Below are positions 18,935-36,670 of a stretch of DNA of 64,000 nucleotides, one piece after another (within the stretch, counting starts at the first letter, position 1; the number at the start of each line of letters is the position of its first letter). The stretch is taken from the NCBI GenBank assembly GCA_964016885.1, contig OZ024752.1, positions 9,052,001 to 9,116,000 on the forward strand. The letters are read 5' to 3'. The stretch comes from Eledone cirrhosa. Lineage: Eukaryota. The position numbers were made by a program, and so were the translations under genes. Below the pieces are notes generated by a model. It did not search any database and was not told where the DNA came from. It saw only the letters and a program-made list of their open reading frames with translations.

Positions 18935-20113
18935 GCCACCAGGGCATCAAAAGTGGGACAAGTACAAAGGGGGGGGGGTGAGTTTACATGCAAAGGCGTC
19001 CTCAATATGGAGGAGGCAATAACAAGATATAAAAGTATAAAAATAAAATAAAATATAACAAAATAAATTTTGTAACAAAATCCTCAATAGGGAGGAGGCG
19101 CCTTGGGGGGGTCGCACACACCGCCGAAAAAAAGTGTGCAACCCTTCTCCTCAGGAGCACAGAGAGGGGGTGCTCCCTTGGTCTTTCATCTTCCTCACCT
19201 ATAGTCTGATGTAGAGTGAAGGCCTATTCACATGGGCCATTCTCGCCACTTTCACCCATCTTTCATAATAACGGCTGGGGTGCAGCACCTCTCTCCATCC
19301 TGATCCTTCTTCCGAAATGATATCGGAAGAAACGGACCAGTTGTTGGCCAGAGAGAAAGATGTCTGACCTCAGTCCTTTCAGACGCGTCCACCATACAAC
19401 CTCTATCGACATGGCTATTACGCACAGAAACACCGCCTCTCCTTCGTTTTTGAAGAGGGGAGGCGGCTTGATCGTTGAAGGTTTTCTTATTAAGTTGGGG
19501 ACAGACAGCCCTCAAGTGACCTCTGGTTCCACAGAGGTAACACGAGGGCCCGCTTACCCTCAACGGTAATGTTGATGAAAGTTTGATCATCCAGTATGAC
19601 GCGTTCAGGGATCTGGGCGATCCTTTCGGGCCTCATTTGAACTACAAGTTCGAGGCTCGTTCCACTGAACACGTCACCCAATGCCTTTCCCATGGACACC
19701 AGCGTGTCATCATCCAGGTTCAGGAAACCTGTCAAAACCCACCATATGTCCATAATCGGCAGGATGGTGTGGATTTTTATTTTTTGCGTCCTTCTACCCA
19801 TGTACGTAGGGTAGAAGGTGTATGCGGTGGATGTAATTGGTTTGATGGACAGTTTCACTGCTGTGTCCCTGTCATTCATGAGAATGGATAGACTCCCGTA
19901 GAGTCTATCTTTCTGAGTGAAAGTGATGTCTTTCATGACGTCTTTTAAAACCAGCTCTATCTCGCTCTGTGATGGTTGAGCTGGATTTTTGCTTTTATTC
20001 GAGATTGTCCTAAACATGACAATGTTTAGGAGTTTCTGGCTTTTTAGCCGGGGGGGGGGGGGGGGGGGGGGGTTGAAAATGTACCATTTTCCCCGTACAT
20101 TATGTATTTTTTT
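18935..20113 (-). mobile_element. L1/Tx1-like LINE, 3' part: rest of ORF1 (zinc knuckle) joined to the ORF2 C-terminus and 3'UTR (internally deleted)
   Basis: ITVEGKR..CYLCGTRGHLRAVCP CCHC knuckle; 3' region homologous to 44975-45400 (caatagggaggaggcgcc; AATAAA end). Confidence 0.65.
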
Positions 20114-20226
20114 ACCAAGGCTTCTTTCTACTGGTGAGTAAAAATCTTCCTGCACTTCTTGATAGAATCGTGTACCATTTTCCCCGTACATTATGTATTT
20201 TTTTGCCTAAAGGGTAGGGGGTGTAC
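20073..20226. repeat. Chimeric LINE-ORF1 / viral-NS1 repeat block (copy of 24004-24248)
   Basis: gtaccattttccccgtacattatgtatttttt at 20081 and 20172, separated by a ~59-nt piece identical to 24306-24365. Confidence 0.9.
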
Positions 20227-20342
20227 TCCTCAACTCAAAATTAAAAAAAAAAAAAAAATAAAATAATCACCAACCTCCCTCTCGGGAGGCTGGTGACTAC
20301 TTTTTCTTTATCATTTATTCAACAAAATATTACAAAATGTTT

Positions 20343-21989
20343 TCATGCATTTGATATTTCTTTCATTATTCTTCCGTATTTATTCCATCTTCCTGCTGTT
20401 CCTTTTTCGTCTTCTTCTTCTTCTTCGGTGTCAGAATACTGTCGTTTAATTGACCAGCTTCCAGAATCAGTTTCAGACCCCAATCTACTTGGTCTTTCAC
20501 GACATCTATCTTCGTTGGTTTGTTCGCTTGTAAGACGTTCGTATTCATCTAAAATTTTGGCTAGATCATCATCACTTGCACTATCATCAATAATTACAAA
20601 ATCTTGAAAGCAATATTCATAAATCAATATATTCCAGATTCCTGGATTAAGCTTCTTTTTAACATGCTTAAGAAATGGGGATGCACAATCAAAAACAAAT
20701 TCAGTATAACGTGTTATAAAAGCCTTCTTTTCATCGTAAGGAGCATTCTTATCAAAACGATTATTAGAAGTTATAATTAATGGTGTGCGATGCACAACCT
20801 GATCTGGTTTAAATTTAACGGATACCTCAGTATCTGTACCCTCTGACAGTTTTTTAAATGTTTGTAGTGTCTTCAATGTGAAGTTAGGTTCTTCAATTAA
20901 ACCTAATTCAACATTGATCAAATTCTGAAAAGGAAATGTACTCGTACCCTGAATAGTACTAACATGAGTGAACATATCACCAATTGATCTAGCAATCATA
21001 CTTTTACCAGTATTAGCTAATCCACGTAGTACCATTAAATTTCTTTTTGGGTCCTTCTGAGTTAATAATTCCCAAACACATTGCACAAATTCTTCAATGT
21101 CTATCTTCTGTGTCATTAAAATTGATTTGAAAACCTTCATTGAAACATCTGTACTCGCATATTTGATTGGATCGAATTCCCAGACCATATTCTCAAATTT
21201 CTGTTTGAATGGCATTGTTAACGTACGTAGCTTAACACATTCGAGGACTTTCTTCATGATGTTATCATACTGTGCGTGACTTAAAGCGCGCATAAAATTC
21301 TCGTTGTTCTGCCTATTTAACCAGTAAGATTTCATCGCTTGTTCGGATTTAAATGATTTGTTTGTGTAGATATAAGTCAAATAATTAAACAAATAAAGTG
21401 TTGTTCCGGACTTAGATTTAAAGCATGGTTCGTCGTTATCAATCTTACTTTTCTCTTTTTCGGTTTCTTTATGTACGTATGGTGCTTTAGGTATGTACTC
21501 TTTCTCACACCAATCACTGAATTCTCTGTTCAATTCATTCGCACCCTGAATCAGTAGTACTCTTGGTGGTTGACAGAAGTAATCAGCCATTGCACTCGGA
21601 AATTTTACATTTTGGGCATCTGGTATGTATCTTTTTAAATTCGTTGCCTTCTTGTATAGTATTCTTATATATTTCAAAACTTGGTTTTCTCCTGGTCTTA
21701 TTTCATCGTTCCATATTATGTGGAAATGGTTAAAAGTATTCCATTCCTTGTTACTGCAACCTGCTGCTTCTGCTTTGTGAAATATTACTGTGGCCTTATA
21801 TATCTTAATAAAATTTAATATCTTCTGATTACAATTAGTTTGTGCTCCGTTTTTCATTAATCCTGTTTCCACATTATGTTCGTTAACTTCTATTTCATCT
21901 TGTAGTATTGGTTCGCTATTGTACACCCACGAGAAATCATCTTCATTAATCCATGGGAATATTAGCATATACATCTTCCTCCCTCTCAC
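20343..21989 (-). CDS. NS1: Parvovirus-like NS1, EVE A1 (putative exon 2; open frame)
   Basis: HUH motif NHFHIIW, SF3 Walker A GLANTGKS, Walker B LIEE, motif C IITSNN; preceded by acceptor TTTTGTCATTACAG. Confidence 0.92.
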   Translation of the reverse strand: MRGRKMYMLIFPWINEDDFSWVYNSEPILQDEIEVNEHNVETGLMKNGAQTNCNQKILNFIKIYKATVIFHKAEAAGCSNKEWNTFNHFHIIWNDEIRPGENQVLKYIRILYKKATNLKRYIPDAQNVKFPSAMADYFCQPPRVLLIQGANELNREFSDWCEKEYIPKAPYVHKETEKEKSKIDNDEPCFKSKSGTTLYLFNYLTYIYTNKSFKSEQAMKSYWLNRQNNENFMRALSHAQYDNIMKKVLECVKLRTLTMPFKQKFENMVWEFDPIKYASTDVSMKVFKSILMTQKIDIEEFVQCVWELLTQKDPKRNLMVLRGLANTGKSMIARSIGDMFTHVSTIQGTSTFPFQNLINVELGLIEEPNFTLKTLQTFKKLSEGTDTEVSVKFKPDQVVHRTPLIITSNNRFDKNAPYDEKKAFITRYTEFVFDCASPFLKHVKKKLNPGIWNILIYEYCFQDFVIIDDSASDDDLAKILDEYERLTSEQTNEDRCRERPSRLGSETDSGSWSIKRQYSDTEEEEEDEKGTAGRWNKYGRIMKEISNA

Positions 21990-22022
21990 CTGTAATGACA
22001 AAATTTGTATAGTAATTATCCA

Positions 22023-23639
22023 TTAACGGTGAGCCACTTGTGCTGACCCGACTGCCATTGTAGTATAATTACGAATACCCATCGGCCATTTACATAGATG
22101 TGTCTTAGAAGAATTTTGTATGACGCCCTTGTTATTATTCCATGCTTGGAATCCTGCAGTCTGTGGACTACCCGAAATATATTCGAAGTCTATCTCAGAA
22201 TTATATGTTATCGTTATCATGAAACTTATTTTAGATGGGTTATCCCCAGAATCTAGTATCGGTATCGAATCTAATGTTGCTATTGGTGGAGGATTAGATG
22301 GGTTAATAGGCATTTGTGTTAAATGTGTTCTACCTATATTCTCTTCGTCTGACTCTTTGTTAATTCCTAAATCCTTACTCCATTTTCCCGTTTTTGTTGG
22401 CGCCCATAAATCATATTTACCATACGTATATGTATTAATGTCTGCTGGTAAACCATCGTTTATTTTAATTGTAGGTCCTTCGTATGTAGTATCATATGCA
22501 TAATAATTCATACAATTGAACCAACTAGGAGTTCTATTAATCCATTGATATCCAGCTGTCTCACCACTATATAAGAATGTTAAATCACCCGTATTCAAAA
22601 TACATAACAATTGTTGTGCGTTTAATGTCTGTGCTGTAGTTGTAGCTTTAGTGAATCCATTATATTCCCACCAATCCTTTCTACACTTTCTTGTTGTCTG
22701 TACATGACTTAACGATCCCTCTGCTCTTGTAACAGGAGCATTATGTTTAAAATTGTTATTAACATTCGGGATACTATATGTTGCTGTTGGAAACAAAGCA
22801 TACTTATTATCGACATAATGTATCATATATGGTCTTGTATTAAATGTTGTACTTGTTGTTGTTGTTCCTTGTACTGTACCTAATTCATCTGATAACGGTA
22901 CTATATTAGATATCTTATAACCACAAGATTTCACTCTAAAGTTATTACATGGTGACATATATGTTTCTAACTCTGCATTTGTCATGCTAGCTTTCAAATT
23001 ACCATATGGTATATACACTGATCTATGTTTAATTAATAACTTTACATATGCATCTGCTGCATCACTAGTAGTAATAAATGTAGCTTCGTCTTGTGGTGTA
23101 TCGAAACAGTTTACATAATGTATAAACGTTCTTGAAAATTTTTTACTTACTATAGGATTTTTATCTCCTATTCCTGGTGGTTGATCACCAGTTGCTAATG
23201 CTGCCGAACCTGGTGGTTGATCACCAGTTGCTAATGCTGCCGAACCTCCTAGAGCAGGTCCTACGTGTGGGTCTCCCATATCTACGTCTTCACTTTCTAT
23301 CCCACTATCTTGTGTTCCTCCGGCTTTTACTAAATCTTTATCCGATATATACTCCTCTCCCTTTTCAGCTTGTTCTTGTTCGGTTTTCCTTTTTTTATTA
23401 TATGGTGGCATTACCCAGTTCTTAGTTTTTATAATATTACTAACGACATACGATGTCAACCCTCCAACTTTATCAGAACACTCGATTAATTGTTTATCTG
23501 CTTCTAGTTCACTAATTTCATTAGTACCATAGGCTATATCGTGTTCTCTGCAACAATTATCCAAATCATTAACTGGTTCCCTCTCTAGATCTTTAGTATA
23601 AGGTCCACAGTAATTATAACCAGGTATATGTAAAGGCAT
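22023..23639 (-). CDS. Parvovirus-like capsid VP with N-terminal PLA2, EVE A1 (open frame)
   Basis: PGYNYCGP...PVNDLDNCCREHDIAY (parvoviral PLA2), KKRK NLS-like motif, densovirus-like capsid body; in-frame 36-bp duplication (GSAALATGDQPP x2). Confidence 0.9.
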   Translation of the reverse strand: MPLHIPGYNYCGPYTKDLEREPVNDLDNCCREHDIAYGTNEISELEADKQLIECSDKVGGLTSYVVSNIIKTKNWVMPPYNKKRKTEQEQAEKGEEYISDKDLVKAGGTQDSGIESEDVDMGDPHVGPALGGSAALATGDQPPGSAALATGDQPPGIGDKNPIVSKKFSRTFIHYVNCFDTPQDEATFITTSDAADAYVKLLIKHRSVYIPYGNLKASMTNAELETYMSPCNNFRVKSCGYKISNIVPLSDELGTVQGTTTTSTTFNTRPYMIHYVDNKYALFPTATYSIPNVNNNFKHNAPVTRAEGSLSHVQTTRKCRKDWWEYNGFTKATTTAQTLNAQQLLCILNTGDLTFLYSGETAGYQWINRTPSWFNCMNYYAYDTTYEGPTIKINDGLPADINTYTYGKYDLWAPTKTGKWSKDLGINKESDEENIGRTHLTQMPINPSNPPPIATLDSIPILDSGDNPSKISFMITITYNSEIDFEYISGSPQTAGFQAWNNNKGVIQNSSKTHLCKWPMGIRNYTTMAVGSAQVAHR

Positions 23640-23649
23640 GTCTACTCAC

Positions 23650-23703
23650 TTTTAACTTGCCGAGCATATCTGCATCACGTAGCTTCAAATCTTCGTAATT
23701 CAT
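23650..23703 (-). CDS. Putative NS1 leader exon 1 of EVE A1 (MNYEDLKLRDADMLGKLK)
   Basis: ATG plus 17 codons, then AAA|GTGAGT donor; phase 0 matches the acceptor at 21990; homologous exon in A2. Confidence 0.75.
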
Positions 23704-23779
23704 CTTTCTTTCTTAGTTGAGGGTTAGACGTCGTTCTCTCTGGGCTTCCAGTAAATTATGACGGTTATTTCTGGCGCCC

Positions 23780-23910
23780 AGGACTATTTATATCTTTCTT
23801 TTCCCACGTATCAGTATCCTATTACATCACGTGATCAGCACATGTCTGAACACGTTTTGTTGTAGAATACCACGTCATCAAATATATATCTCTTCTCTGA
23901 TTGGTCAATA
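23780..23910 (-). promoter_or_regulatory. Viral Pol II promoter of EVE A1
   Basis: TATAAATA (~23785-23792, minus strand), ATCACGTGAT E-box 23826-23835, TGACGTGG, CCAAT box (~23900); same set present in A2. Confidence 0.65.
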
Positions 23911-24003
23911 TATTGTCGCATAATGCACAGCACTTTTGGAGGGAGTCGAATGGTGGGAGGGAGGGAGCTGTCGGTATTTCGTAGAAATCAGCGGGGAGGT
24001 AAG

Positions 24004-24248
24004 CGTTGAAAATGTACCATTTTCCCCGTACATTATGTATTTTTTTACCAAGGCTTCTTTCTACTGGTGAGTAAAAATCTTCCTGCACTTCTTGATAGAA
24101 TCGTGTACCATTTTCCCCGTACATTATGTATTTTTACCAAGGCTTCTTTCTACTGGTGAGTAAAAATCTTCCTGCACTTCTTGATAGAATCGTGTACCAT
24201 TTTCCCCGTACATTATGTATTTTTTTGCCTAAAGGGTGGGGGGTGTAC
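24004..24248. repeat. Chimeric tandem repeat (91/89-bp units): LINE-ORF1 motif alternating with a viral NS1 piece
   Basis: Motif starts at 24014, 24105 and 24194; spacers identical to 24306-24365. Confidence 0.9.
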
Positions 24249-24299
24249 GATAATTACACCCCAGCAGTGCCAACCACTTTTAGAAAATATCGCTCCATT

Positions 24300-24773
24300 T
24301 TCTTTTACCAAGGCTTCTTTCTACTGGTGAGTAAAAATCTTCCTGCACTTCTTGATAGAATCGTGTTTTTGGTAGCGATTCTAGCGGGGTTGACATGTAT
24401 TTATTTTCTGTATAATCTTTTATGTAATCCCTCCATATCGTCAACCACATCATGGGATTCAGCTCCTTCTGACCCCCATTCTTTCAATTTAGGCATTGCT
24501 GAATTGGTATTGTAGATAAACATTCGAGCTTTTAAGGCACTTTCGTCCTGCATTACTCTGTCCCATGGGTTGGAGTTACCTGTACTTATGCATGGTGTCC
24601 TGTGGAGAATACGTTCTTGTTGGTGTTTTATATTTACATATGTCTCGGTTCCTTCTAATATGCATTTGGCTTCTTCAATGTTGATGTTCGTGAACCACAT
24701 CTCGTCTGTAAATATTAATGTCTTGTCTATACATGTTCCGAACGTGAAATTGTCGCTCGCCTGACACCTCATT
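24300..24773 (-). pseudogene. NS1 helicase C-terminal fragment, lineage B (variant 2)
   Basis: MRCQASDNFTFGTCIDKTLIFTDEMW...ISTGNSNPW is near-identical in protein to 25460-27070 but has many synonymous changes; frameshifted. Confidence 0.85.
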
Positions 24774-24880
24774 GGTTGCCAATGCTGGGGTGTAATTATC
24801 GTACACCCCCCCCACACCTATACGTATAGGTGGTGGGGGGGGGGGGGTGTACGATAATTACACCCCAGCATTGGCAACCA
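24773..24880. other. Parvoviral-type terminal hairpin (108 nt) at the downstream end of EVE B1
   Basis: tggttgccaatgctggggtgtaattatcgtacaccccccc / reverse complement, with central palindrome cacctatacgtataggtg; partial copies at ~24232-24278 and ~20211-20226. Confidence 0.8.
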
Positions 24881-25218
24881 CTTGTAGGAAATAATAGAGA
24901 ATAGAATAGAATAACAGAGGTAAACAATGGTGCTAGTGGTGCCTCCTCTAAGTTTTTCAACTTACCTCCCTTTACCAGTGAGAGAGTCTCAACACAATTC
25001 AATGCCGCAGGTGTCATGGCCGCCTATACCCTTATATATATACTATACTATCAAATATTATTTTCACTTTTCAATAAAGTAATTTAATATTTAATATATA
25101 TATATAATATATATAATATACTTACCGGCCGCCATCTTGTTTCACTGCCAGCGATTGTGTGTACATCTCTTATCTATCGGTCATCTCAAATAAACAAACA
25201 ACAAGGTATAATCAGATT

Positions 25219-27070
25219 TCAATCAGTATCTTTATTAGGAGTAAAGCTACACAAGTACATGTCATTGCCATGCTCTAGACAGCGTTGACCTGGTTCATTC
25301 GAATCATAACGGCACATCTTATATGGCGGTTCTGTTGACTGACGTAATTCATGACAGTCGTCGTCGTCATCATTCCAGTCTTCAAGATAGTCTCGCCAGT
25401 TCACGTTGTTATTCCCGTCAACCACTTCGTTCTCTGCATACGATGTAGATGCCACGCATTCATCTTGTCTCTGCATACGATGTAGATGCCACGCATTCAT
25501 CTTGTCTCTGCTTTTTATCGTCTGGTATTTCTATTTCAAGCTCTGTTGTACTGCTACTCCACCTTCTTTTGCCCAAGGTTCTTTCCACTGGTGAGTAGAA
25601 ATCCTCTTGAACTTCTTGGTAAAATCTCGTCTTTGGTAGTGCTTCTATAGGTGTGGACATGTATTTGTTCTCGCTGTAGTCTTTGATGTAGTCTCGCCAT
25701 ATTGTTAGCCACATCATGGGATTCAACTCTTTCTGTCCCCATTCTTTTAGTTTAGGCATAGCTGCATTCGTGTTATAAATAAACATACGCGCTCTTAACG
25801 CCCCCTCATCTTGCATCACTCTATCCCATGGATTCGAGTTGCCGGTGCTGATACAAGGCGTTCTGTGGAGAATACGTTCCTGCTGATGTTTGATATTCAC
25901 GTACGTTTCGGTCCCTTCGAGAATACATTTAGCCTCCTCGATATTGATGTTGGTAAACCACATCTCGTCCGTAAATATTAACGTTTTATCAATGCAAGTG
26001 CCAAAAGTGAAATTATCACTGGCCTGACATCTCATTCTCCCACAATTCATGAGTCCGTTTCTTATACTTCTTAACAGATAGCTCTTTCCGCTGTTGGGTT
26101 GGCCAGTAATGTGTAAGCTGTTTTTCTTGGGTAATATCTTGTGGCAGACATCAAACAGGTCCCTGCCAAACTTTACGTGGCTTATGCTGTGAAAAGCGCA
26201 CCAATGTTCATATATTGCCAAGCTTGTATTAACTGTCCAGTAACGCACACCATCGCTGCCCAACATTAGTTTCTTTTGCTGTATTTGTTCCCATATTGGT
26301 GTAATTCGATTCTCTATCTGTAATTGGGTTGAGGCGGGTTGAAGTAGTGATGAAAGATTAGGCGTATTCCTGTACACTGAATCCCATGCGTGTCCGTACT
26401 TGTCTTTGCCTATTGTACAGACGAAGTTGATGATGTCACCGAGGTCTGTAGAATTACATTTACTCATCAGATCCTTTACAAAGTTAAACTTGTTGCCACG
26501 TACTGTGTCATTTGTTTTAATCTTTGTAGTCGTGTCTTCAACGGGTATCGGTATCATCTCTTTCATCGTAATGGCTGATAACATCTTTCTTTGACTCATT
26601 GTTTTTATGTCGTTGCAAGCTATTACATCATACTTTTGCAAGTACTCCGCAAATCCTGCTGGTGATTCTATCTTTGCCGCCTTCATTTCGTATTGGTTCT
26701 TTGGGTCTTTCGTTTGTAGTATCTTTTTCAGTTTCAAGAAGCTGTGTTGATTCGTTAGGTGTGACGTATGCCATGTGATTATGTGAAAATGATCCACGTC
26801 ATCGCAGTGCTTAATTCGCGAGGGACCTTTGGGATGGTAGATAACTATTGATGTGAACGTGCAGAGTAATCTAAATAAGAGTGAGTGCTCCTCTTTAAAC
26901 GGTTTGTAATTAATTGTCTGAGATGGTGATTTGAAGAGGTCTTGTTCCGCCCACGTAAATTCGTTGGGCTCTTGCCACCTGTACACCCATGTGTAAGCTG
27001 TGGTTCCTTTGGTGTTTGTTGTATCGTTGAAGAACTCTTCATTGAATTTCTGTTTCTCCTTGTGATCCAT
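25219..27070 (-). pseudogene. NS1: Parvovirus-like NS1, EVE B1 (C-terminal frameshift)
   Basis: DHFHIITW HUH, GQPNSGKS Walker A, IFTDEM Walker B, ISTGN motif C; a 37-bp tandem duplication (25431-25504) shifts the tail into ORF 25219-25500. Confidence 0.9.
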
Positions 27071-27095
27071 GACTGCTCTGCTGTAAGATTTTAGC

Positions 27096-28855
27096 TTACT
27101 TGTTCACAAACTGCCCGCTTCTGTATTTAAAGGGACTGTCTTTATCGCCCACGTCCATAGTTCTCGCGTGCTGGGCGTTCTTAACTCTATGACCATGAAA
27201 ATGTCTGCCCGGATTGGTTACACTGTGTAGATCGTATCTATACTCTTGGTCTGTGTTGATTCTACGTGCTGCGTTTATATTGGTTGTTGCAATTATCTGT
27301 GGGTGGTTCAGTTGATCGTAATCAGCTTCGATGGTGAGGAAGTATTCAATTTCCATCTGAAACATTAATGTCTGTATTGCGTTATTTCCATTTACTTTCA
27401 CTGGCACGTTTATCAGTACCATATTTGGTGGGTCTTCTGACGTGTACAAAACGTTATTTATGAGTGTTCTGTCTGCCACGGTGTAGATTCCTCCTGTTGT
27501 TTCGTAGTCTCCCGCCACTGTCGTAGATTCTCTGATACATTGATAGTTCATACCCATTTCGTTGTACTCTGCCATTGCCACGTCTTCCATCCATCCCAGT
27601 CGTGTTATGTTTCTTGGGTTTTTATAGTCTAGCCATTCAGCTCCCTTCTCGAAGCTTGTTCCCCCGTACGGTGCAGATGCCACGTTTATTCCTCCGTCAG
27701 TATTGATGTAGCTATTATTTTGTGCGTGAAAGTCGTTAGCGAACTTACCACAGTTTAGAATATTACCGTGTAGTATCACGTTTCCATTTCTTTCTGTGTT
27801 GGTTAACGGATGTGTTAATCTTGAATGATTTTTCCATTTATGCACGAATGTATCTCCTTGTCTCACTTCTTTGACGTCGCTTAACCCTCTCCAGTCGTGT
27901 AGTTTTATCATCGGTATAGTTACTTTTGAGTCAGCAAACGTAGTTCCCATGTCTGCCAGTCATGTAGTTTTCTCATTTCAACTGTTGCTTTATTATCAAC
28001 GAATGTGTGTCTTAGGTCTTGTATGACGTCTGCACTCGCCATGTAGAAATATTCGTATGTTGGTAATAATAGTTGGTTCATGCTTGTTGGATGTATGAGT
28101 TGGAACCCATCATTGGGTATGGAGGAGACGCCTCTTAGATTGTTGTATCCGATATATTTTCCTCTGTCTATGTATATTTGGAAATATGGTAACGGATTGT
28201 TGATAAATTGATCCTCTCTTCTCTGTACTATCCACTCTGAGCATGTAATATTCGATATTTGGAAACCCATTTCTTTGACGCGGTATGATGTAGCCATACT
28301 GAGTTGCACTTCCCATTCGATGGGTTTAACCCACGTAGTCATCCAGTATGGTACAAGATAGTCTTTTGATTTGCATACACCTCTCGTCATTTGATCTTTG
28401 ATATTGGGCTGATTATCTCCGGCCTGTTTAATCATCGTAAATACACCAGTGGATTCGTTCATATTGCTAGATTTCACTACATTTAGGAATTTCCTTGTGA
28501 AAGTGACCTCTCGTTGATAGGGGCCAGTCGGGGCAGGTATTTGGGAGGATGAACCATGTTGTGTACCGGACCATCCACCTCCTCCATCAGACCTCTCAGT
28601 CTCAGTATCCGTCTCCATCCCAGCCATAGTAGCAGCCCCACCAGTATCAACAGTATCGGTAGGAGTACCTCGAAAATATGAATCGAGTCCCAGATAATGC
28701 TTAGCTCCGATTGCCGCTGCTGCGCGTATACCTGTAGGTCCGGATTTAACCGCCTCTCCGATGAATTTCTTGTCAGCGAACCAGGTTCTGATGTCTTTGT
28801 TTCCATATGCGATGTCGTGTTCCTTTGCAGCCTGGTCTAGCCTATTGCGTGGTAC
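27096..28855 (-). pseudogene. Capsid VP of EVE B1 with PLA2 remnant; chimeric and frameshifted at ~27950
   Basis: Frame of ORF 27920-28627 extends upstream as VPRNRLDQAAKEHDIAYG (PLA2 catalytic helix); Gly-rich GGGGWSG; start codon and Ca-binding loop missing. Confidence 0.85.
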
Positions 28856-28917
28856 CCAATATTTGATGGTCCTGGTTCCTCCTCGGGCGGCTTCTTCCGT
28901 TTGCGACTACTCGGCAT
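28856..28917 (-). CDS. Putative NS1 leader exon of EVE B1 (MPSSRKRKKPPEEEPGPSNIG)
   Basis: Follows TATA (CTATATAA ~28945-28952); ends GG|GTAC in phase 2, matching acceptor ATCTTACAG|C AGA GCA GTC ATG at 27081; donor is weak, possibly a deletion junction. Confidence 0.45.
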
Positions 28918-29109
28918 ACTGATGGTTTCATGATTTTTTTCTTATTATATAGGCTGATTTGAGGTAACTATCATACCACATCGCTGTCGGCGGTCTGAAA
29001 TACTATACCGGGCACCTCTTCTACCAGTGTGATCAATGGTCAGCAGTGATTATCCCATTCCCACACCATCGGCTTATTATTACATTGTATTATAGACGAA
29101 AGGGGTGGG

Positions 29110-29480
29110 AATGTATTTTTTTGCCTCTGCCTGTAGCTCCTTCGCTTTGGTTATATCTACTGGCAGATAGTCGAGGGTTTTCCTTGTTTGTGTTGCTGTT
29201 GTTGTTATCACAGTTATTGGTCTTCTTGTTGTTGTTATTGTTATTGGTGTTGTTTTCGTCCGTAGCATTGTTGTTGTTGTTGCTGGTGCCGCTGGTTCTT
29301 TGGTTTGTTGCCAAGTTGTTGGTCAGCAGGTGGAGAAAATCCTTCTTCTGGCTGACCTTTGTTTTTGACCTCTGCTACTGTGACAGTGGCAAGCTGTGAG
29401 CTTATCTTCCCCTTTCCTCCTTCGAATTTTGGTGAAGAAGCTTCAGCCATTTTACAAAAAAATGTTAACTTTTCAAAAAA
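29110..29480 (-). repeat. Duplicated 5' part of the L1/Tx1-like LINE ORF1
   Basis: Near-identical to 33295-33660 (MAEASSPKFEGG...(CAA)n...ELQAEAKKY). Confidence 0.9.
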
Positions 29481-29603
29481 TAAAAAAAAAACTACCAACC
29501 GACCTCCCGGCCGGTTGGTAGTTAATTTTATTATTGCAAAGCTTCTTTTTTTTTTTAATTCAATATTTTATTTCACAAAATTATATAATGAAGACATGCA
29601 AAA

Positions 29604-31278
29604 TTATAAATTCTCACAAGCAGAGAGAGGTGATAAATCTTGACCATGAGGATCTTCACCCATCAGTTTTCTGTATTTTCTCCATCTGGAGCCACGAGTA
29701 CAGTTTTCTTTGTCTTCGTCATTTTCGTCGAGGTGCACAGTGTCCCCGCTTCGACAAGGAGACGGAGTCCGTAGTCTATCTGATCGTTTTCTTTTCTCTC
29801 TTTGGAGTCGCTCGTATTCTTCTGTAATAGTTAATAGGTTATCATCGGAAGATGAACTGTCATCGTTAACTAAATCTGAGAAGCAATCAATGTTCATAGA
29901 ATAAGATATTCCAAACATGAGGATTAATCTTTTTTTTTACAAATTGTAGAAAGGGAGACGAAGTATTAAATAGATACTCATTGTATCTTGTTACAAACGC
30001 TAGCCGTTCAGCTATTGGCGCATTTTGGTCAAATTTATTATTCGAAGTGATAATTAACGGTGTTCTGTGTACAACTTGGTCTAATTTGAATTTTACTGAA
30101 ACTTCAGTATCAGTCCCTTCAGCTAATTTCTTAAAAGTTTGCAGTGATTCTAATGTAAAGTTAGGTTCTTCGATTAACCCAATTTCAACGTTAATGAGGT
30201 TCTGAAATGGGAAACTGCTAGTTCCCTGTACCGTACTGACGTGTGTGAACATATCAGCGATTGATCGGGCTATCATTGACTTTCCCGTGTTCGGTAGCCC
30301 ACGTAGCACAAGTAGATTTGTTTTTGTTTTTTTTTTGGTTAGAAGTTGCCATACGTTCCTTACAAAAGTTTCTTCGTCTATGTCTTGTGTCATTAGAATT
30401 GATTTAATAACTTGAAGAGACGGTTCAGTTTGTAAATAAATTCTGTTGTTATTTTCAGTTGTGTACGAATCCCAATTCATACTTTCAAATTTTTCCTTGA
30501 ATGGCATTATCAATGTCTTCAATTTCATGCATTCAAGTACTTTTTTCATTACTGTATCGTACATAGCGTGGCTTATAGCTCTCATAAAGTTTTCGTTGTT
30601 AGGTCTATTTAACCAGTGACTTTTCATATCTTGTTCAGATTTGAATTTTCGGCTGGTGAAAATATAAGTCAGATAGTTGAACAACGTCATTGTTGTGCCG
30701 TTTCTCGTTTTAAATGTTGCTTCTTCTGAATTAATATTGTTATTTGCTTCGTCTTTCTTAGGACTATTTACTGGTTTCATTCTGTATTCTTCTTGACACC
30801 ACATTGAAAATTCGGCGTTTATTTTACTGCGTCCCTCGAATAATAGATATCGAGGTGCTTGGCAAAAGTAATTCGCCATACTGCTCGGAAAACGTACTCT
30901 TTGGCAATCGGGTATGAATTTAACTAGTTTAGTTGCTTTCTTATATAGTTGTCGTATGTATTTAAGTCTTTGGTCTTCTCCGGGTCTTATTTCATTGTTC
31001 CATATTATATGGAAATGGTTCTGAGTGTTCCATTCTTTTCTGGTGCATACTTGTGTTTCTGCAGGATGATATATCACCGTTGCTCCGTTGATAGCTGCGA
31101 ATTCTATGATCTTGGCGTTTGAGGATATTTGTGATTGGCTTTTACGGTTTTGTGTTTCTGTTTCGTAGTCATTACATACGTTAATGTCATATGTGTATGG
31201 CGTTTCGTCTTCGTACCATACAAAATCGTCCTTCTCTATCCATGGGTATATTATCATATACATTTTTTTACCGGTATT
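29604..31278 (-). pseudogene. NS1: Parvovirus-like NS1, EVE A2 (exon 2; frameshift at ~29887)
   Basis: NHFHIIW, GLPNTGKS, LIEE, IITSNN; collinear with A1; a 4-nt duplication (CATTGATTGC) moves the tail into ORF 29604-29918; acceptor TTTCCATTTTTGCAG at 31279. Confidence 0.9.
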
Positions 31279-31316
31279 CTGCAAAAATGGAAAGAGGTTA
31301 TTTTTGTAATATTACT

Positions 31317-32894
31317 TTAACGATGTGCTTGTCTGGTTTTACCCACTCTCGTTATTTCATAGTTACGTAAACCTTGCGGCCATTTGCATAAATTAGTTTT
31401 AGCAGAGTTAGCTATTAAGTTAGTATCGCTACAGTAACACATCCATCCCATATATTGAGGACTACCCGAAATGTATTCGAAATCTATTTCTGAGTGATAC
31501 GTAACTGTTATCATGAAAGATATTTTAGCCGCTTGATTTTGTGAATCGAGTATAGGTACTGAATCTAGTGTACATATAGGAGGTGGATTAGATGGATTTA
31601 TTGGGAATTGTGTTAAGTGTGATCTGCCCGTGTTTTCTTCTTCTACGTGACTATCTACAGCTAAATCCTTACTCCATTTACCGTTAGCTGTTGGTGCCCA
31701 CATACTTTTTTTAGCTCCAGAGTATGTGTTAATTTCTGTAGGCAACCCGTTAGTAGATAAAATTGTTGGTGGTTCGAAAGTAGTATTGAATGCGCTATAA
31801 CCCATCATATTGAACCAGCTTGGTGTTCTGTTTACCCATGTATATCCAGCAGTATCGCCCGCATATATGAAATTGAAGCTACCTGTGTTTAAATACGACA
31901 GAATTTCTTCTGCTGGTAATTCTTGATCTGTAGCTGTTGCAGCTTTGTTTCCCTGCCATAACCACCAGTCATGTCTTACTAATCTGCTTGTTTCCAATGT
32001 TTTAAGTTTACCCTCATCTCTAGTTACTGGTATATTATGTGTCCAGTTACTGTTTAATTGATTTAATTCGTATGTTCTGTTTGGAAACAATGCATATTTG
32101 TTATCTACGTAGTGTATCATCCATGGTCTAGTGTTAAATGTTGTATTTGTTGTTGTTGTGTTTTGTAACGTTCCTAATTCGTCGGTTAACGGTATTATAT
32201 TTGATATCTTGTATCCGCACGATTTTATTCTCATGTTACTAGCAGGTGTTAAGTATGTTTGTAGTTCTGCTACTGTCATGCTTGCTTTTAAGTCTGTATA
32301 TGGTATTAATGCTGCTTTGTGATCTATTCTTAATACTAAGTATTCCGTATCAAATTTTTTGTAATAGGCTTTATCGAAAGGTGTGTCGCTACAGTTAACG
32401 TAATGTATAAATGTTCTAGAGAACTTTTTGGTGACTATTGGATTTATATCTCCTATATCTGGCGGTTGATCCCCTTGTGCTAATGCTGCTGATCCCCCCG
32501 GAGCTGGCCCTACATGAGGATCCCCCATTGTTGGTGTTTCTGCTATTCCACTATCTTGTGATGTTACTGCGTTTAGTAAGTCTTTATCTGATATATCACA
32601 CAATTCTTCCTCGTTCTTATGAGATTGTTGTTCTTCTACTCTCCTTTTTTTTCCTGTAGGTGGCATTACCCAATTTTTCCCTCTTATTATATTTTTAACT
32701 AAGAACGCCGCTACTCCATCTACTTTTTCAGCACACTCTATAAGCTTATTATCAGCATCTATAATATCTACGTTATTATTTCCGTAACTTATATTGTGTT
32801 CTCTGCAGCAATTATCTAAATCATTTATCGTTATCTTATTTAGGTCTTTTGTATATGGTCCACAATAATTATACCCAGGAATATGTAAAGGCAT
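31317..32894 (-). CDS. Capsid VP with PLA2 region, EVE A2 (open frame)
   Basis: MPLHIPGYNYCGPYTKDL identical to the A1 start; collinear homology throughout; catalytic HD is HN. Confidence 0.9.
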   Translation of the reverse strand: MPLHIPGYNYCGPYTKDLNKITINDLDNCCREHNISYGNNNVDIIDADNKLIECAEKVDGVAAFLVKNIIRGKNWVMPPTGKKRRVEEQQSHKNEEELCDISDKDLLNAVTSQDSGIAETPTMGDPHVGPAPGGSAALAQGDQPPDIGDINPIVTKKFSRTFIHYVNCSDTPFDKAYYKKFDTEYLVLRIDHKAALIPYTDLKASMTVAELQTYLTPASNMRIKSCGYKISNIIPLTDELGTLQNTTTTNTTFNTRPWMIHYVDNKYALFPNRTYELNQLNSNWTHNIPVTRDEGKLKTLETSRLVRHDWWLWQGNKAATATDQELPAEEILSYLNTGSFNFIYAGDTAGYTWVNRTPSWFNMMGYSAFNTTFEPPTILSTNGLPTEINTYSGAKKSMWAPTANGKWSKDLAVDSHVEEENTGRSHLTQFPINPSNPPPICTLDSVPILDSQNQAAKISFMITVTYHSEIDFEYISGSPQYMGWMCYCSDTNLIANSAKTNLCKWPQGLRNYEITRVGKTRQAHR

Positions 32895-32904
32895 GATTAC
32901 TTAC

Positions 32905-32958
32905 GTTGAGTTCTGCCAACATTCCTGCATCTCTAGTTTTAAGATCTTCGTAACTCAT
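32905..32958 (-). CDS. Putative NS1 leader exon 1 of EVE A2 (MSYEDLKTRDAGMLAELN)
   Basis: 18 codons, then AAC|GTAAGT consensus donor 10 nt before the VP ATG; phase 0 with acceptor 31279. Confidence 0.78.
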
Positions 32959-33039
32959 GTTGATGGTTCTTGTATGTAGTAGTGGAGTAACGGCGTTCTT
33001 CTTAGCGTCTGCGTCTTCAACTGTTAAGATGCGCGCGCT

Positions 33040-33180
33040 TTAATATATTTATAGCAATTCTATGCTGACGTGTCAGTATATCACGTGATAATAACATGTT
33101 TGGACACGTATATCACTCATGATCGTAACGTGTTTGAACACGTTTCACTTATTTCTATATCTCTATTCTGATTGGTCGAT
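33040..33180 (-). promoter_or_regulatory. Viral Pol II promoter of EVE A2
   Basis: TATAAATA (~33046-33053), TGACGT, ATCACGTGAT 33080-33089, CCAAT (~33170). Confidence 0.65.
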
Positions 33181-33274
33181 TAATTTCTGCACAATGCACT
33201 GTTCTTTTGGCATAGGAGGAATGTAGGTCGGGAGGGAGGTGGAGGAATTCTAAGAATTTAGCGGATAGGCAATC

Positions 33275-33850
33275 GTACCATTTTCCCCGTACATTATGTA
33301 TTTTTTTGCCTCTGCCTATAGCTCCTTCGCTTTGGTTATATCTACTGGCAGATAGTCGAGGGTTTTCCTTGTTTGTGTTGCTGTTGTTGTTATCACAGTT
33401 ATTGGTCTTCTTGTTGTTGTTATTGGTGTTGTTTTCGTCCGTAGCATTGTTGTTGTTGTTGCCGGTGCCGCTGGTTCTTTGGTTTGTTGCCAAGTTGTTG
33501 GTCAGCAGGTGGAGAAAATCCTTCTTCTGGCTGACCTTTGTTTTTGACCTCTGCTACTGTGACAGTGGCAAGCTGTGAGCTTATCTTCCCCTTTCCTCCT
33601 TCGAATTTTGGTGAAGAAGCTTCAGCCATTTTACAAAAAATGTTAACTTTTCAAAAAAACTTTTGGTAACTATTTCGCCTAAAGGCGTAGAATATTTTGA
33701 GAGACTGACCAGATCAAAGTTTGACCTGGCAGTCCCGCTACAAAATGGTACAAAAATTAAAGTTTACAGTCAAGAATTTCTATAGAAATTTAAGCAAAAC
33801 TTACTCAGCAAGTTATACGCGTGTGTCCATCCCAGATAGATAGATCAGTC
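33275..33850 (-). mobile_element. L1/Tx1-like LINE 5' part (5'UTR and start of ORF1, ATG 33629)
   Basis: Reads ...ELxAEAKKYIMYGENGT, the same text that resumes at 20113-20073 (KKYIMYGENGTFST) and runs on into the zinc-knuckle ORF1. Confidence 0.65.
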
Positions 33851-34393: not shown

Positions 34394-35641
34394 CAGTGGT
34401 TCTTAACCTTTTTACTTGTTCGCACCCCATTCAATTCACCAGCCAGTTCTCGCACCCCCTTCCAGAATTGATGAAAAGCAATATTGATATCATAATCATA
34501 ATGTGTAAGTAACAAAACAATCATGTATTTAATTCTTTATTTACATAACTGACAACAAAATAATGCATTGCAGGATTACAAAAATCAAGATTACATTCAT
34601 ACTAGTAAAAAAACGAAATAACATTGTGCTTGTACTATGCATGGTGTGCTGTGAATTATTATGGCTGAGCGCCAAATTCAGTGACTTTGTTGCTGTTGCT
34701 TTCCATTTATGATGGCATCAAATCTTGGTGTCTTGGTGCTGAGTGCCACTCGCATGTCGTGTTGAGGATCCAGCCGATTTCGGCTCTTGGTTTTGATGTG
34801 AAGCAGACAGGAAAATCCAGTCTCGCAGAGGTAAGTAGTCGCGAAAGGCGTGAGCACAGTGAGAGCCTTCTTTGCCAGTGCAGGATACGTTTCCAACTGA
34901 GAAGCCCAGAAGTGCTCCAAGTGACCATCGGTAAACTCCATTTGCATTCCACGATTGTTTCTGAGTTCGATGAGATCTTCCTTGATGTTGCTATCATCAT
35001 CAACATCTTCCATATTATGCTTAAAAGGGTGCCGGATCCAGTCGTCACAGGGTTTTAGCTCTCCACACGAGAAGTAGTCATCAAATGAGGTGCACAGTAT
35101 CTGCAGATGTTCAATAATTTTTGAAACAAAATCTTGATGTAGGCAAGCATCCTCTGTTACTGTTTCTTCAAGGGAAGGAAAATTTGCCAAGTTCCCTTTC
35201 TTTAAACGCCTAATCCACAAAACAATTTTGTCTTTGAATGTAGCCAACTTCTCACTTGCAATCAAAATGTTCATCCCTCTTCCTTGTAGTGAGCGATTGA
35301 GCTCATTGAGTGCTGTGAACACATCAGCCAAATAGGCAAGCATTTGAATAAATTCAGGATCATCAAAATATCCAGCCAGTTCTTGTCCCAGTCCGTGGAG
35401 AAACTGCTGAATTTCTTCTCGCAATTCAAACATACGAGATAGCACACGCCCACGTGACAGCCACCTCACTTCGGTATGGTACAACAGCACAGTGTGTTCC
35501 TGACCCACTTCCTCACAAAATAACTGAAACAGTCGATGATTCAGAGCACGACCACGAATCATATTCACGATCTTCACACAAATCTCCAAAGTCTTTTTCA
35601 GGTATGGGGGCAATGTTTTTGCTGCAAGAGCCTGCCGGTGT
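34394..35641 (-). mobile_element. hAT (Charlie/Buster/ZBED5-like) transposon 3' half
   Basis: HRQALAAK, HTEVRWLSRG, LAYLADVF, PFATTYLCETGFS dimerisation motif; TIR cagtggttcttaacc at 34394 next to gtttagag. Confidence 0.88.
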
Positions 35642-36670
35642 TGAATTTATAGGGTTGCTTCGCCTCCTTTACATCTAGAGTTCTTGCGTGTTGCACGTTT
35701 TTCACCTCGTGACCGTGGAAATGTCTACCCGGATTGGTTAAACAATTTACGTCAAATCTAAAAGTCTTGTCAGCACATGTATTTATGGAGGCGTTATAAT
35801 TGCAAGTTTGCAAAACTTGCGGATGACATAATTGATCAAAATCTAAATCGAGCGTGAGAAAGTATTCAATTTCTAGCTGATACAGCAAAATTTGTTGAGA
35901 GTTGTTCCCGTTAACTTTGATTGGTACATTTATAAGTACCATCTCCGGGGGGTCCTTTGACGTGTAAAGCACGTTGTTGATAAGTGTACGATCTGCTACT
36001 GTGTATATCCCGCTTGCTGCTTCTGATCCTTCTTGGTCGGCTATTTTTCTCATTGGTTGATAGTTTGCCGCGTATTCGTTATGTTCTGCTAGATGCATAT
36101 TTTCCATCCACCCATATCTAGTGATTATTCTAGGTTTATTCCAATCTAACCATTTGGCGCCTCCTTCGTGCCAAAGAATGGTGCTGAGCATAGATTTATG
36201 CAACCATCTTGTTTAACGAGTGATCCTTCTCCAGCATGATGATTTTGCGACCATTTACCGTTATTTAAAATTGCTCCGTGTTGTATTACGTTTCCATCCC
36301 ATTCAGTATTTGTTAGTGGATGCGTCAATAGAGAATGATTTCTCCATCTATGCACGAATGTGTCACCTTGTCTCATTTCTTTTACTTCGGGCATATTACG
36401 CCAGTCATGTAGTTTGTACATTTCTATTGTTGATTTGTTATCTTTCGAAAACACTGCTCCATAATCTATTATTTGCCATGTACCAATATTCGTAATTTGG
36501 TAATAATAATTGTTTCATGTCCGTTGGATGAGTCATATTGAAACCGTCATTTGGGATTGAAGTAATGCCCCGTAGATTCTTATATCCAATATATTTTCCT
36601 CTATCAACGTAGATTTGAAAATAAGGCAAAGGATTATTTATGAATTGATCTTCTCCATTTTTAACTATCC
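35634..36670 (-). pseudogene. Lineage-B capsid VP fragment (another variant), frameshifted
   Basis: PYFQIYVDRGKYIGY, KLHDW..VKE..QGDTFVH, YTVADRTLINNVLYTS, NPGRHFHGH all match 27096-28627. Confidence 0.88.

Follow-up and report, generated by a model that had tools for sequence, protein, structure and literature searches.

The 64,000-nt window analyzed here (Eledone cirrhosa assembly GCA_964016885.1, contig OZ024752.1, positions 9,052,001 to 9,116,000) contains endogenous copies of a linear, hairpin-ended parvovirus family of about 3.9-4.7 kb, with the genome order left hairpin, promoter, short coding leader, capsid gene (VP), NS1 body, polyA signal, and right hairpin. For lineage A, to which copies A1 and A2 of the window belong, and for an apparently exogenous relative (L072), the best explanation, at a probability of about 0.85, is a capsid-first genome in which NS1 would be spliced across VP from one pre-mRNA and VP would be made from RNA that retains the intron.

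Table 1. Positions of parvovirus-derived features in the window
Feature	Position	Strand	Basis
A1 left terminal repeat remnant	23921..24000	-	terminal-repeat core common with intact left hairpins of other copies; 71% to A2 equivalent
A1 TATA box, single predicted promoter	23785..23792	-	equivalent box upstream of leader in most other copies
A1 18-codon leader, predicted NS1 exon 1	23650..23703	-	peptide conserved in 13 distinct copies
A1 predicted 1,660-nt intron (GTGAGT...CAG) containing whole VP gene	21990..23649	-	donor/acceptor conservation
A1 VP (capsid gene), 538 aa, PLA2-like domain at the N-terminus	22023..23639	-	closest PDB match by sequence is the major capsid protein of PmMDV, E 8e-9
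A1 NS1 body (predicted exon 2) with HUH-type nuclease and SF3 helicase	20343..21989	-	open frame
A1 AATAAA after NS1	20314..20319	-	read in sequence
A1 short hairpin after polyA signal, then T run	20266..20297	.	similar hairpin in A2, L039, L043, L046
Lineage B capsid gene, ahead of NS1, disrupted by frameshifts and deletion	27096..28917	-	matches A1 VP weakly; in other B copies an unbroken VP-like block precedes NS1
Lineage B NS1, own start codon, downstream of VP	25460..27070	-	TATA-like box 61 nt upstream
A2 left terminal palindrome, one arm	33192..33272	-	matches left hairpin arm of L033/L034/L046
A2 TATA box	33047..33053	-	read in sequence
A2 18-codon leader, predicted NS1 exon 1	32905..32958	-	conserved leader
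A2 predicted 1,626-nt intron (GTAAGT...CAG) containing VP	31279..32904	-	sequence features
A2 capsid gene VP, 525 aa, PLA2-like domain	31317..32894	-	ORF and profile match
A2 NS1 body, broken by frameshift near 29890-29920	29604..31278	-	ORF and profile match
A2 AATAAA after NS1	29567..29572	-	read in sequence
A2 short hairpin after polyA signal	29484..29529	.	inverted-repeat listing

The positions and phases that a preliminary description gave for the leaders, donors, and acceptors of A1 and A2 were all borne out (Table 1), and both junctions, when recomputed, are phase 0 and place the leader in frame with NS1. Each leader is 54 nt long. The donors (GTGAGT in A1, GTAAGT in A2) start 10 nt before the VP ATG, the CAG acceptors end at 21990 and 31279 (33 and 38 nt past the VP stop), and a TATA box lies ~90 nt upstream of the leader ATG in both copies. 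The right terminal repeat of A1 has been lost. The frameshift in A2 NS1 is an addition to the earlier account.

Conservation in homologs was proposed as a test of this arrangement, and the leader peptide, donor, and phase-0 CAG are indeed kept across copies that are 67-90% identical. The leader pattern has 19 matches in the genome and the reversed pattern has none. GT(A/G)AGT directly follows codon 18 in 11 of 13 distinct copies, with a different first base in the other two; we note that host copies are related to one another, with VP genes 67-100% identical, so these counts are not independent. Because GTRAGT is so rare in the bodies of A1 (once in 3,294 nt) and A2 (zero in 3,291 nt), the donor placement is beyond chance. 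The spacing of exactly 10 nt between donor and VP ATG holds for A1 and A2 but not generally, being 10 nt in seven and 7 nt in six of the 13 distinct copies, in all of which VP is in the +1 frame relative to the leader. Across the same copies, pN/pS of the leader is 0.35 in frame versus 0.74 and 1.29 in the shifted frames, although the search pattern itself fixes part of codons 1-10 and the free codons 11-18 give only 0.60. The 54 nt upstream of the leader differ at 64% of positions.

At the other end of the predicted intron, 13 of 15 distinct lineage-A junctions have CAG at one and the same phase-0 position, and two old copies (L045 and L047) lack it there. Among the 13 junctions with the conserved CAG, the Met that opens the NS1 ORF in the window is Leu in eight and a stop in one. 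A second Met, two codons into the lineage-A NS1 body, is kept in 14 of 15 copies, so that, judged by codon loss alone, an internal NS1 start could still serve this lineage. The preliminary description had named an NS1 promoter inside VP as a finding that would speak against splicing; a scan of the last 200 nt before NS1 found a TATA-like box in none of the 15 distinct junctions. No spliced NS1 protein with the leader was found among the 187 proteins retrieved, or in a search with the N-terminus of another copy. Contigs from four sequencing runs (three guessed to be RNA, one of unknown kind) that map to 20265-23990 cross the donor and acceptor unspliced, at a depth of about 2-9 and mostly 90-99% alike, and the joint 21989/23650 is absent from them; these contigs may be DNA and drop rare forms, and so speak neither for nor against the splice. 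Overall, the conserved sites indicate that NS1 is most likely spliced across the whole capsid gene.

The metagenome scan yielded five loci (L072-L076) from 218 candidates, of which L072, L073, and L075 were read. L072, the only exogenous-looking genome read, is a free-standing contig of 4,693 nt with hairpins at both ends and an NS1 of 31% identity; it is close and capsid-first. It keeps the VP-before-NS1 order, leader, donor, and acceptor for which relatives were to be checked, in a different intron phase. Its leader comprises 18 codons plus 2 nt, with AG|GTAAGC lying 9 nt before a 667-aa ORF that matches A1 VP (E 5e-7) and parvovirus capsid clusters (Atlas score 0.96). The acceptor, TTTCAG, is 6 nt past the stop of this ORF, and the predicted junction (473 to 2493) would be phase 2 and in frame. 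If the intron is retained, the leader stops inside the donor. The NS1 frame has no Met for 169 codons (the first is at codon 170), and the nuclease domain therefore needs the spliced leader. No canonical TATA box was found between the left hairpin and the leader of this genome. L073 is ambisense and served as a control, and L075 has a capsid-like fragment downstream on the opposite strand. The sole yield from viral_contigs, scanned for exogenous relatives, was a distant NS-first parvovirus (L071). In the alignment, the NS1 proteins of three relatives known from protein alone (P0027, P0028, and P0172) start late, like ORF-truncated NS1.

That lineage B, which lies between A1 and A2, is also capsid-first is a further addition to the earlier account. 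Lineage B NS1 has its own ATG, neither leader nor donor is conserved, and in 10 of 11 copies a TATA-like box lies 39-123 nt upstream of NS1. From these features, lineage B appears to use an internal promoter instead of a splice, and capsid-first genomes can apparently work without a leader splice. About 25 residues precede the first conserved nuclease strand in lineage B NS1; leader plus spacer in lineage A give 24.

In the scheme that we favor for lineage A and L072, one pre-mRNA would be made from a single promoter. Joining of the donor before the VP ATG to the acceptor past the VP stop would remove the whole capsid gene as an intron, and the leader would supply the NS1 start codon and first 18 residues. 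We infer this splice strongly because the sites are conserved and L072 has no alternative start. With the intron retained, the leader would act as a short upstream ORF, in lineage A of 28-29 codons and overlapping the VP start out of frame, and VP might then be made by leaky scanning or re-initiation. More speculatively, the NS1:VP ratio, and probably an early-to-late change, could be set by splicing versus retention of this single intron, perhaps with feedback from NS1.

Such an order could arise as an artefact of integration or assembly, if an ordinary NS-VP genome had been captured in circularly permuted form or as a head-to-tail concatemer. Host loci are often rearranged mosaics, and at L043 a VP piece does follow an NS1 piece, but that piece begins mid-VP and the NS1 before it is truncated. 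Elsewhere, VP is upstream of NS1 on the same strand (19 of 20 host loci fetched, on 12 contigs), so that the minus-strand order of promoter, 18-codon leader, VP, NS1, and polyA signal described for A1 and A2 is the true virus layout; a 1,613-nt contig from another organism (run X8) also spans the NS1 body, acceptor, and VP end. Palindromes sit upstream of the promoter and downstream of NS1 and the polyA signal; in L031, the core of the left palindrome and the axis of the right hairpin are 3,911 nt apart. Flip-flop dimers, tail-to-tail in L031 and head-to-head in L033, are joined at these outer hairpin ends. The concatemer reading fails on the position of the termini, and the short distance from VP stop to acceptor (33-38 nt, with no hairpin, promoter, or polyA site between) and the recurrence of the junction in viruses 67-90% identical and in free-standing L072 also argue against it. 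We regard it as vanishingly improbable.

A different possibility accepts the order and places an internal promoter near the VP end of lineage A, with NS1 starting at its own Met and the leader serving as a regulatory upstream ORF that damps VP. The retained second Met would suit this, and lineage B looks to be built in just this way. However, the TATA-like box of lineage B has no counterpart in the lineage-A junctions, the donor keeps its place directly after codon 18 while its distance to VP varies, the acceptor keeps its phase, and L072 offers no Met over the stretch noted above; moreover, with a start at the internal Met, NS1 would begin right at the first conserved nuclease strand, unlike in lineage B. 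Taken together, these points make an internal promoter in lineage A very unlikely. It is also conceivable that NS1 is spliced as proposed and that VP comes from a separate mRNA, made from a second start site between the leader and VP ATGs or by internal polyA cleavage. With an A at -3, the leader ATGs would allow less scanning beyond them, AATAAA/ATTAAA hexamers are scattered within VP, and parvovirus B19 (B19V) is described as using internal polyadenylation (PMC5996831). Against this, the hexamers are mostly at positions not shared between A1 and A2, neither copy has one between VP stop and acceptor, only one upstream TATA box was found, and the VP frame never coincides with that of the leader, which is what an upstream-ORF arrangement calls for. 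A separate VP message thus seems doubtful, and a retained intron remains our preferred source of VP.

Family membership is indicated by NS1 and by the genome termini. NS1 matches the SF3 helicase profile PF01057 above cut-off in A1 (E 5e-18), A2 (E 4e-18), lineage B, and L072, and alignments show the HFH motif and downstream Tyr of a predicted HUH nuclease to be conserved across these and their relatives. Parvovirus capsids are T=1 shells of a single jelly-roll protein that often carries PLA2. The VP N-terminus is PLA2-like in lineages A and B (PF08398; E 3e-13 in A1, 8e-9 in A2), and VP matches parvovirus capsids 6wh3 and 9nek by sequence and capsid clusters at Atlas scores of 0.94 and, for L072, 0.96; the VP fold model is poor (pLDDT 35) and a structure search with it gave no match at E<=0.001. 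Parvoviridae have linear genomes of 4-6 kb between hairpin termini (PMC6537627), and here L072 measures 4,693 nt and L031 3,911 nt between ends. Members of the family package single-stranded DNA; the material analyzed here consists of integrated copies and one assembly contig. Section 1.1.1 of one review puts the NS cassette left and the VP cassette right in classified monosense genera (PMC11357303), whereas here both lie on one strand with VP ahead of the NS1 body. The opposite-strand genes of ambisense Densovirinae are seen in control L073 and in none of the copies, and PF08398 in A1 and A2 VP contrasts with PmMDV of the Metallovirinae, whose VP lacks PLA2. Assignment to a genus requires NS1 >30-40% identical over >80% of its length and monophyly with the genus. 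Only three of 30 NS1 relatives looked up carry a name, one being a "hypothetical protein" and two unclassified "parvoviridae sp." NS proteins that are 30-33% identical over the helicase half only. The named sequences retrieved did not include NS1 of PmMDV. In quick trees built with no ICTV reference set, in which deep nodes were unresolved, the helicase gave no resolved placement of A, B, and L072, and full NS1 placed them on one side of an 83% branch from three controls, with long-branch warnings; a common origin of A, B, and L072 is thus a possibility rather than a result of these trees.

With confidence only a little better than even, we consider these elements a large group of invertebrate parvoviruses, undescribed and probably of subfamily rank, with inverted gene order, in which lineage A and L072 nest the capsid gene in an NS1 intron whose retention is an early-to-late switch, and lineage B uses an internal promoter. 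No named member was found in the searches of relatives (30 looked up) and literature covered here. If true, the group spans an evolutionary shift between two-promoter and one-promoter capsid-first genomes, with both states present, and many public contigs that lack annotation and have seemingly N-terminally truncated NS1 ORFs would belong to it. Importantly, ORF prediction in such genomes will cut NS1 short, and the nuclease domain may be reported in error as missing. The usual parvovirus logic would be reversed, in that splicing would be required for the protein needed first and would have to be avoided for the abundant late protein; the scheme models a viral early/late switch with one intron and can be tested directly. 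As shown by the copies, which are many and range from decayed to nearly identical, the host germ line has been infected repeatedly and recently.

The layout had been put forward as unlike any described parvovirus. As outlined in the review cited above, parvoviruses have NS left and VP right or on the opposite strand (PMC11357303), and the openly accessible article text that was searched contained no description of an NS1 intron with VP nested in it. The VP-upstream order, by contrast, has been remarked upon, in the text of PMC9001828, for two unclassified goose-cloaca genomes of more than 7 kb (MT138329 and MT138334), and novelty is therefore slightly lower than first claimed. These are described as having the structural ORF upstream of the non-structural ORF, but measure 7.2 and 7.5 kb and carry an additional large ORF, and are likened here by a text description that gives no strand, leader, or splice (PMC9001828). 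A sentence in PMC11125579 raised the suspicion that Zander parvovirus is capsid-first; its own paper and sequence show the ordinary NS1-VP order.

Among better-known systems, mouse kidney parvovirus (MKPV) and other chaphamaparvoviruses (Hamavirinae) are described as having one confirmed upstream promoter and large introns that frame upstream exons with a downstream gene, but in the order NS-NP-VP, with the large intron serving VP (PMC6631224). No named chaphamaparvovirus was among the 30 NS1 relatives looked up. Penaeus monodon metallodensovirus (PmMDV; Metallovirinae), which is NS-first, provides the best solved-structure match to VP (6wh3, E 8e-9, 56 residues). It shares a marine invertebrate host, and a review reports complex splicing; the same account gives its VP as lacking PLA2, unlike that of lineages A and B (PMC11357303). 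The Swazi bat megaparvovirus-like lineage, as described, has a PLA2-bearing ORF 5' of NS1, predicted splice sites, and full-length EVEs in invertebrate genomes, but is about 6.4 kb with four ORFs and a capsid shell gene after NS1 (PMC13426907), whereas in the present elements PLA2 and shell form one gene upstream of the NS1 body. In B19V (Erythroparvovirus), one promoter is reported to give one pre-mRNA, with NS1 made from unspliced RNA and VP from spliced RNA, aided by an internal polyA site (PMC5996831). The likeness is that a single pre-mRNA yields the first gene unspliced and the second after removal of an intron upstream of it; lineage A and L072 would be the mirror image, with VP first and nested, NS1 needing the splice, and the leader a conserved coding exon.

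On the minus strand between 19.5 and 37 kb, parvovirus-derived pieces are interspersed with Helitron and other transposon fragments (identified from ORFs and Pfam), and Pfam also backs the NS1 and VP (capsid gene) identities. Both frames are open in copy A1, and NS1 is frameshifted close to its 3′ end in copy A2. Long direct repeats enclose each of these two lineage-A copies (one pair of 143 nt at 97%, D3; two pairs, of 143 nt at 96% and of 290 nt at 90%, D11 and D1), and a 37-nt motif (D6) adjoins several insertion ends, which suggests entry by recombination or with target duplication. A stretch similar to the ORF fragment beside A1 adjoins the viral copy in L035, on another contig, upstream of position 5813. 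From 4500 to 45000, the minus strand carries almost every long ORF, whether from a Helitron, parvovirus, transposase, or other fragment. This bias resembles a single-strand piRNA cluster, which could yield antisense RNA against these viruses.

Parvovirus-derived and adjoining features, in window positions
Feature	Position	Strand	Remark
Copy A1	about 24000-20266	minus	lineage A
Lineage-B genome	about 29100-25200	minus	between A1 and A2
Copy A2	about 33270-29484	minus	lineage A
ORF fragment	19490-20040		no Pfam match; adjoins A1
Direct repeats around A1	20060-20202 / 23993-24135		
Direct repeats around A2	29111-29480 / 33296-33659		
Short GC-rich hairpin, then T run	20266-20297; 29484-29529		also L039, L043, L046
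46-nt-arm palindrome (I1, I3)	24773-24880 and 24238-24276		after lineage-B genome
Second lineage-B NS1 fragment	24292-24772		bracketed by the palindrome
Additional lineage-B capsid fragment	35598-36731		protein 58-77% identical to main B copy

A search of the host genome (3.0 Gb, 1,796 contigs; the window is G000:C12:9052001-9116000) yielded 66 matches to VP and, with 80 of 101 candidates scored, at least 80 to NS1. Twenty regions were fetched where the two sat close, with either order accepted, and in 19 of them, on 12 contigs, NS1 is preceded on its own strand by VP or a VP remnant. Only L043 departs from this: it is a mosaic whose truncated NS1 is followed by a mid-VP fragment that continues into a lineage-B fragment. 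L038 carries stray fragments beyond a regular VP-NS1 unit. Long palindromes lie 5′ of the promoter (L033, L034, L039) and 3′ of NS1 and the polyA signal (L031), so the capsid-first order is the virus's own. In L031, whose ends are 3,911 nt apart, the loops are inverted between the two right-end copies, as in replicative dimers. The preliminary description had allowed that the layout might instead be a concatemer junction; this would put hairpins and promoter between VP and NS1, where only 33-38 nt precede the acceptor, and the termini in fact bracket the VP-NS1 unit. A contig from run X8 (different organism, different study) bridges 20649-22257 with 53 differences. Five VP copies at the four loci L031-L034 (contigs C998, C14, C10, C5) are 99.7-100% identical; there the copies are arrayed head to head and tail to tail and bear flip-flop hairpins, which points either to replicative forms that integrated in a burst very recently or to an active infection that the assembly captured. 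The GC-rich hairpin and T run, which closely follow the polyA signal on the inner side of the right terminus, are possibly a 3′-processing element.

On re-checking, all coordinates previously assigned to leaders, donors, acceptors, and phase proved correct. In A1 and A2, a TATA box lies about 90 nt 5′ of a 54-nt leader (an 18-codon micro-ORF, the predicted NS1 exon 1), the donor is 10 nt 5′ of the VP ATG, and a CAG acceptor follows the VP stop by 33 and 38 nt, respectively, giving predicted phase-0 introns of 1,660 nt (A1) and 1,626 nt (A2). The donor consensus is rare, occurring a single time in the 3,294 nt of the A1 body and not at all in 3,291 nt of A2. A pattern drawn from the first ten leader codons had 19 genome matches, and its reversed control had none. 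Among 13 distinct leaders, GT(A/G)AGT directly follows codon 18 in 11, the other two varying at its first base, and VP is out of frame with the leader in every case. Because the gap to the VP ATG varies (7 nt in six, 10 nt in seven), the leader is tied to the donor. Leader pN/pS is 0.35 in frame, as opposed to 0.74 and 1.29 when the frame is shifted, although the search pattern itself fixes part of codons 1-10 and the free codons 11-18 give 0.60; differing positions make up 23-41% of the leader versus 64% of the 54 nt upstream. By these measures, the lineage-A leader behaves like a coding exon. The acceptor regex gave 17 distinct matches, or 15 once L052 and L059 (not lineage-A NS1 starts) were dropped; CAG follows a pyrimidine tract at the identical phase-0 site in 13 of the 15, the other two being the most decayed. 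The expected conservation of leader and splice sites in homologues is thus borne out, among related copies whose VP genes are 67-100% identical.

The DNA establishes the gene order, the termini, and the conservation of in-frame splice signals. We strongly infer (probability about 0.9) that NS1 mRNA arises by removal of the capsid gene as an intron, which would join the leader to the NS1 body. Because no polyA hexamer lies between VP stop and acceptor in A1 or A2, VP is probably translated from RNA that retains the intron, by reading beyond the short upstream ORF. Speculatively, splicing might prevail in the early phase and give way to retention in the late one, with NS1 perhaps in control.

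Formally, lineage-A NS1 might instead begin at an internal start. The Met that opens the window NS1 ORF is Met in four of the 13 CAG-bearing junctions, Leu in eight, and a stop in one, but a second Met, two codons on, is retained in 14 of all 15 junctions. However, no TATA-like box occurs in the preceding 200 nt at any of the 15, which speaks against an internal promoter, and in L072, a relative of the same architecture, the first Met of the NS1 frame is codon 170, beyond the nuclease motifs.

L072 (JAAUYG010294627.1, from the metagenome scan) is a whole contig of 4,693 nt with hairpins at both ends, and its NS1 is 31% identical to that of A1. A leader of 18 codons plus 2 nt ends at a donor (AG/GTAAGC) 9 nt 5′ of a 667-aa ORF, an acceptor (TTTCAG) lies 6 nt past the stop of that ORF, and joining the two, in phase 2, leads in frame into an NS1 reading frame of 447 codons. 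The 667-aa ORF has no match in Pfam or PDB sequences, but it matches A1 VP (E 5e-7) and, in the Atlas, parvovirus capsid clusters (0.96); by these matches it is a capsid protein. No canonical TATA was found before the leader. Because the architecture is identical despite a different leader sequence and intron phase, chance or integration artefact would not account for it. L072, as one free-standing genome, keeps the VP-before-NS1 order, leader, donor, and acceptor predicted for relatives, and closes most of the internal-start gap left by lineage A. Late starts in P0027, P0028, and P0172 (NS1 proteins of the L072 clade), known from protein calls, are expected if these too have no start codon. 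The called protein P0020 opens Phe-Phe-Ser-Gly immediately before the first nuclease strand, which reads as a translated pyrimidine tract and CAG, a hint of the same acceptor. In the 3750-4211 stretch of L072, NS1 switches frame near nt 3750-3780, and the other frame beyond the shift has a Cys-rich motif like that of P0168, P0028, and P0172; faulty assembly, a second intron of small size, or programmed frameshifting might explain this.

Lineage B shows the capsid-first order both in the window and at L038, L051, L052, L053, L055, L056, L058, and L059. Its NS1 has its own ATG in well-kept copies, and no conserved leader or donor was found 5′ of its VP. In 10 of 11 copies, a TATA-like box lies 39-123 nt 5′ of NS1, some boxes being within VP codons, with NS1 starts approximate in old copies and 0/15 in lineage A as the sole comparison. 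Lineage B is thus likely a two-promoter capsid-first genome. About 25 residues precede its first conserved nuclease strand, versus the 24 that leader and spacer supply in lineage A. The 46-nt-arm palindrome is probably its right terminus.

These viruses share Parvoviridae features (a hairpin-ended genome of about 4 kb, an NS1 with HUH and SF3 domains, and a PLA2-like VP), and the capsid-first forms break the family rule of NS left and VP right as stated in section 1.1.1 of PMC11357303. They fit no classified genus among those testable, only two of 30 NS1 relatives looked up bear a virus name (both unclassified), and the trees fall short of showing A, B, and L072 as one clade. The nearest solved structure to VP by sequence is that of Penaeus monodon metallodensovirus (PmMDV), which lacks PLA2, whereas VP here is PLA2-like. 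Mollusc parvovirus-like sequences fall outside known genera in PMC5013282, in the part concerned without their layout, and PMC13426907 describes a PLA2 ORF 5′ of NS1 in genomes whose shell gene still follows NS1. The claim of novelty holds in part. A structural ORF upstream of NS is already stated for two 7.2-7.5 kb genomes in the discussion of PMC9001828, where a splice goes unmentioned, and this reduces full novelty; searches of the openly available literature turned up no genome in which an NS1 intron encloses the capsid gene. The nested-capsid layout is a real, conserved genome strategy, a new variation within Parvoviridae, with the splice itself predicted. It resembles the large-intron scheme of the chaphamaparvovirus MKPV, as far as described in PMC6631224. 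In parvovirus B19, according to the account in PMC5996831, a single promoter supplies both genes, one through unspliced and one through spliced RNA, and the viruses described here would use that same single-promoter scheme in mirror image.
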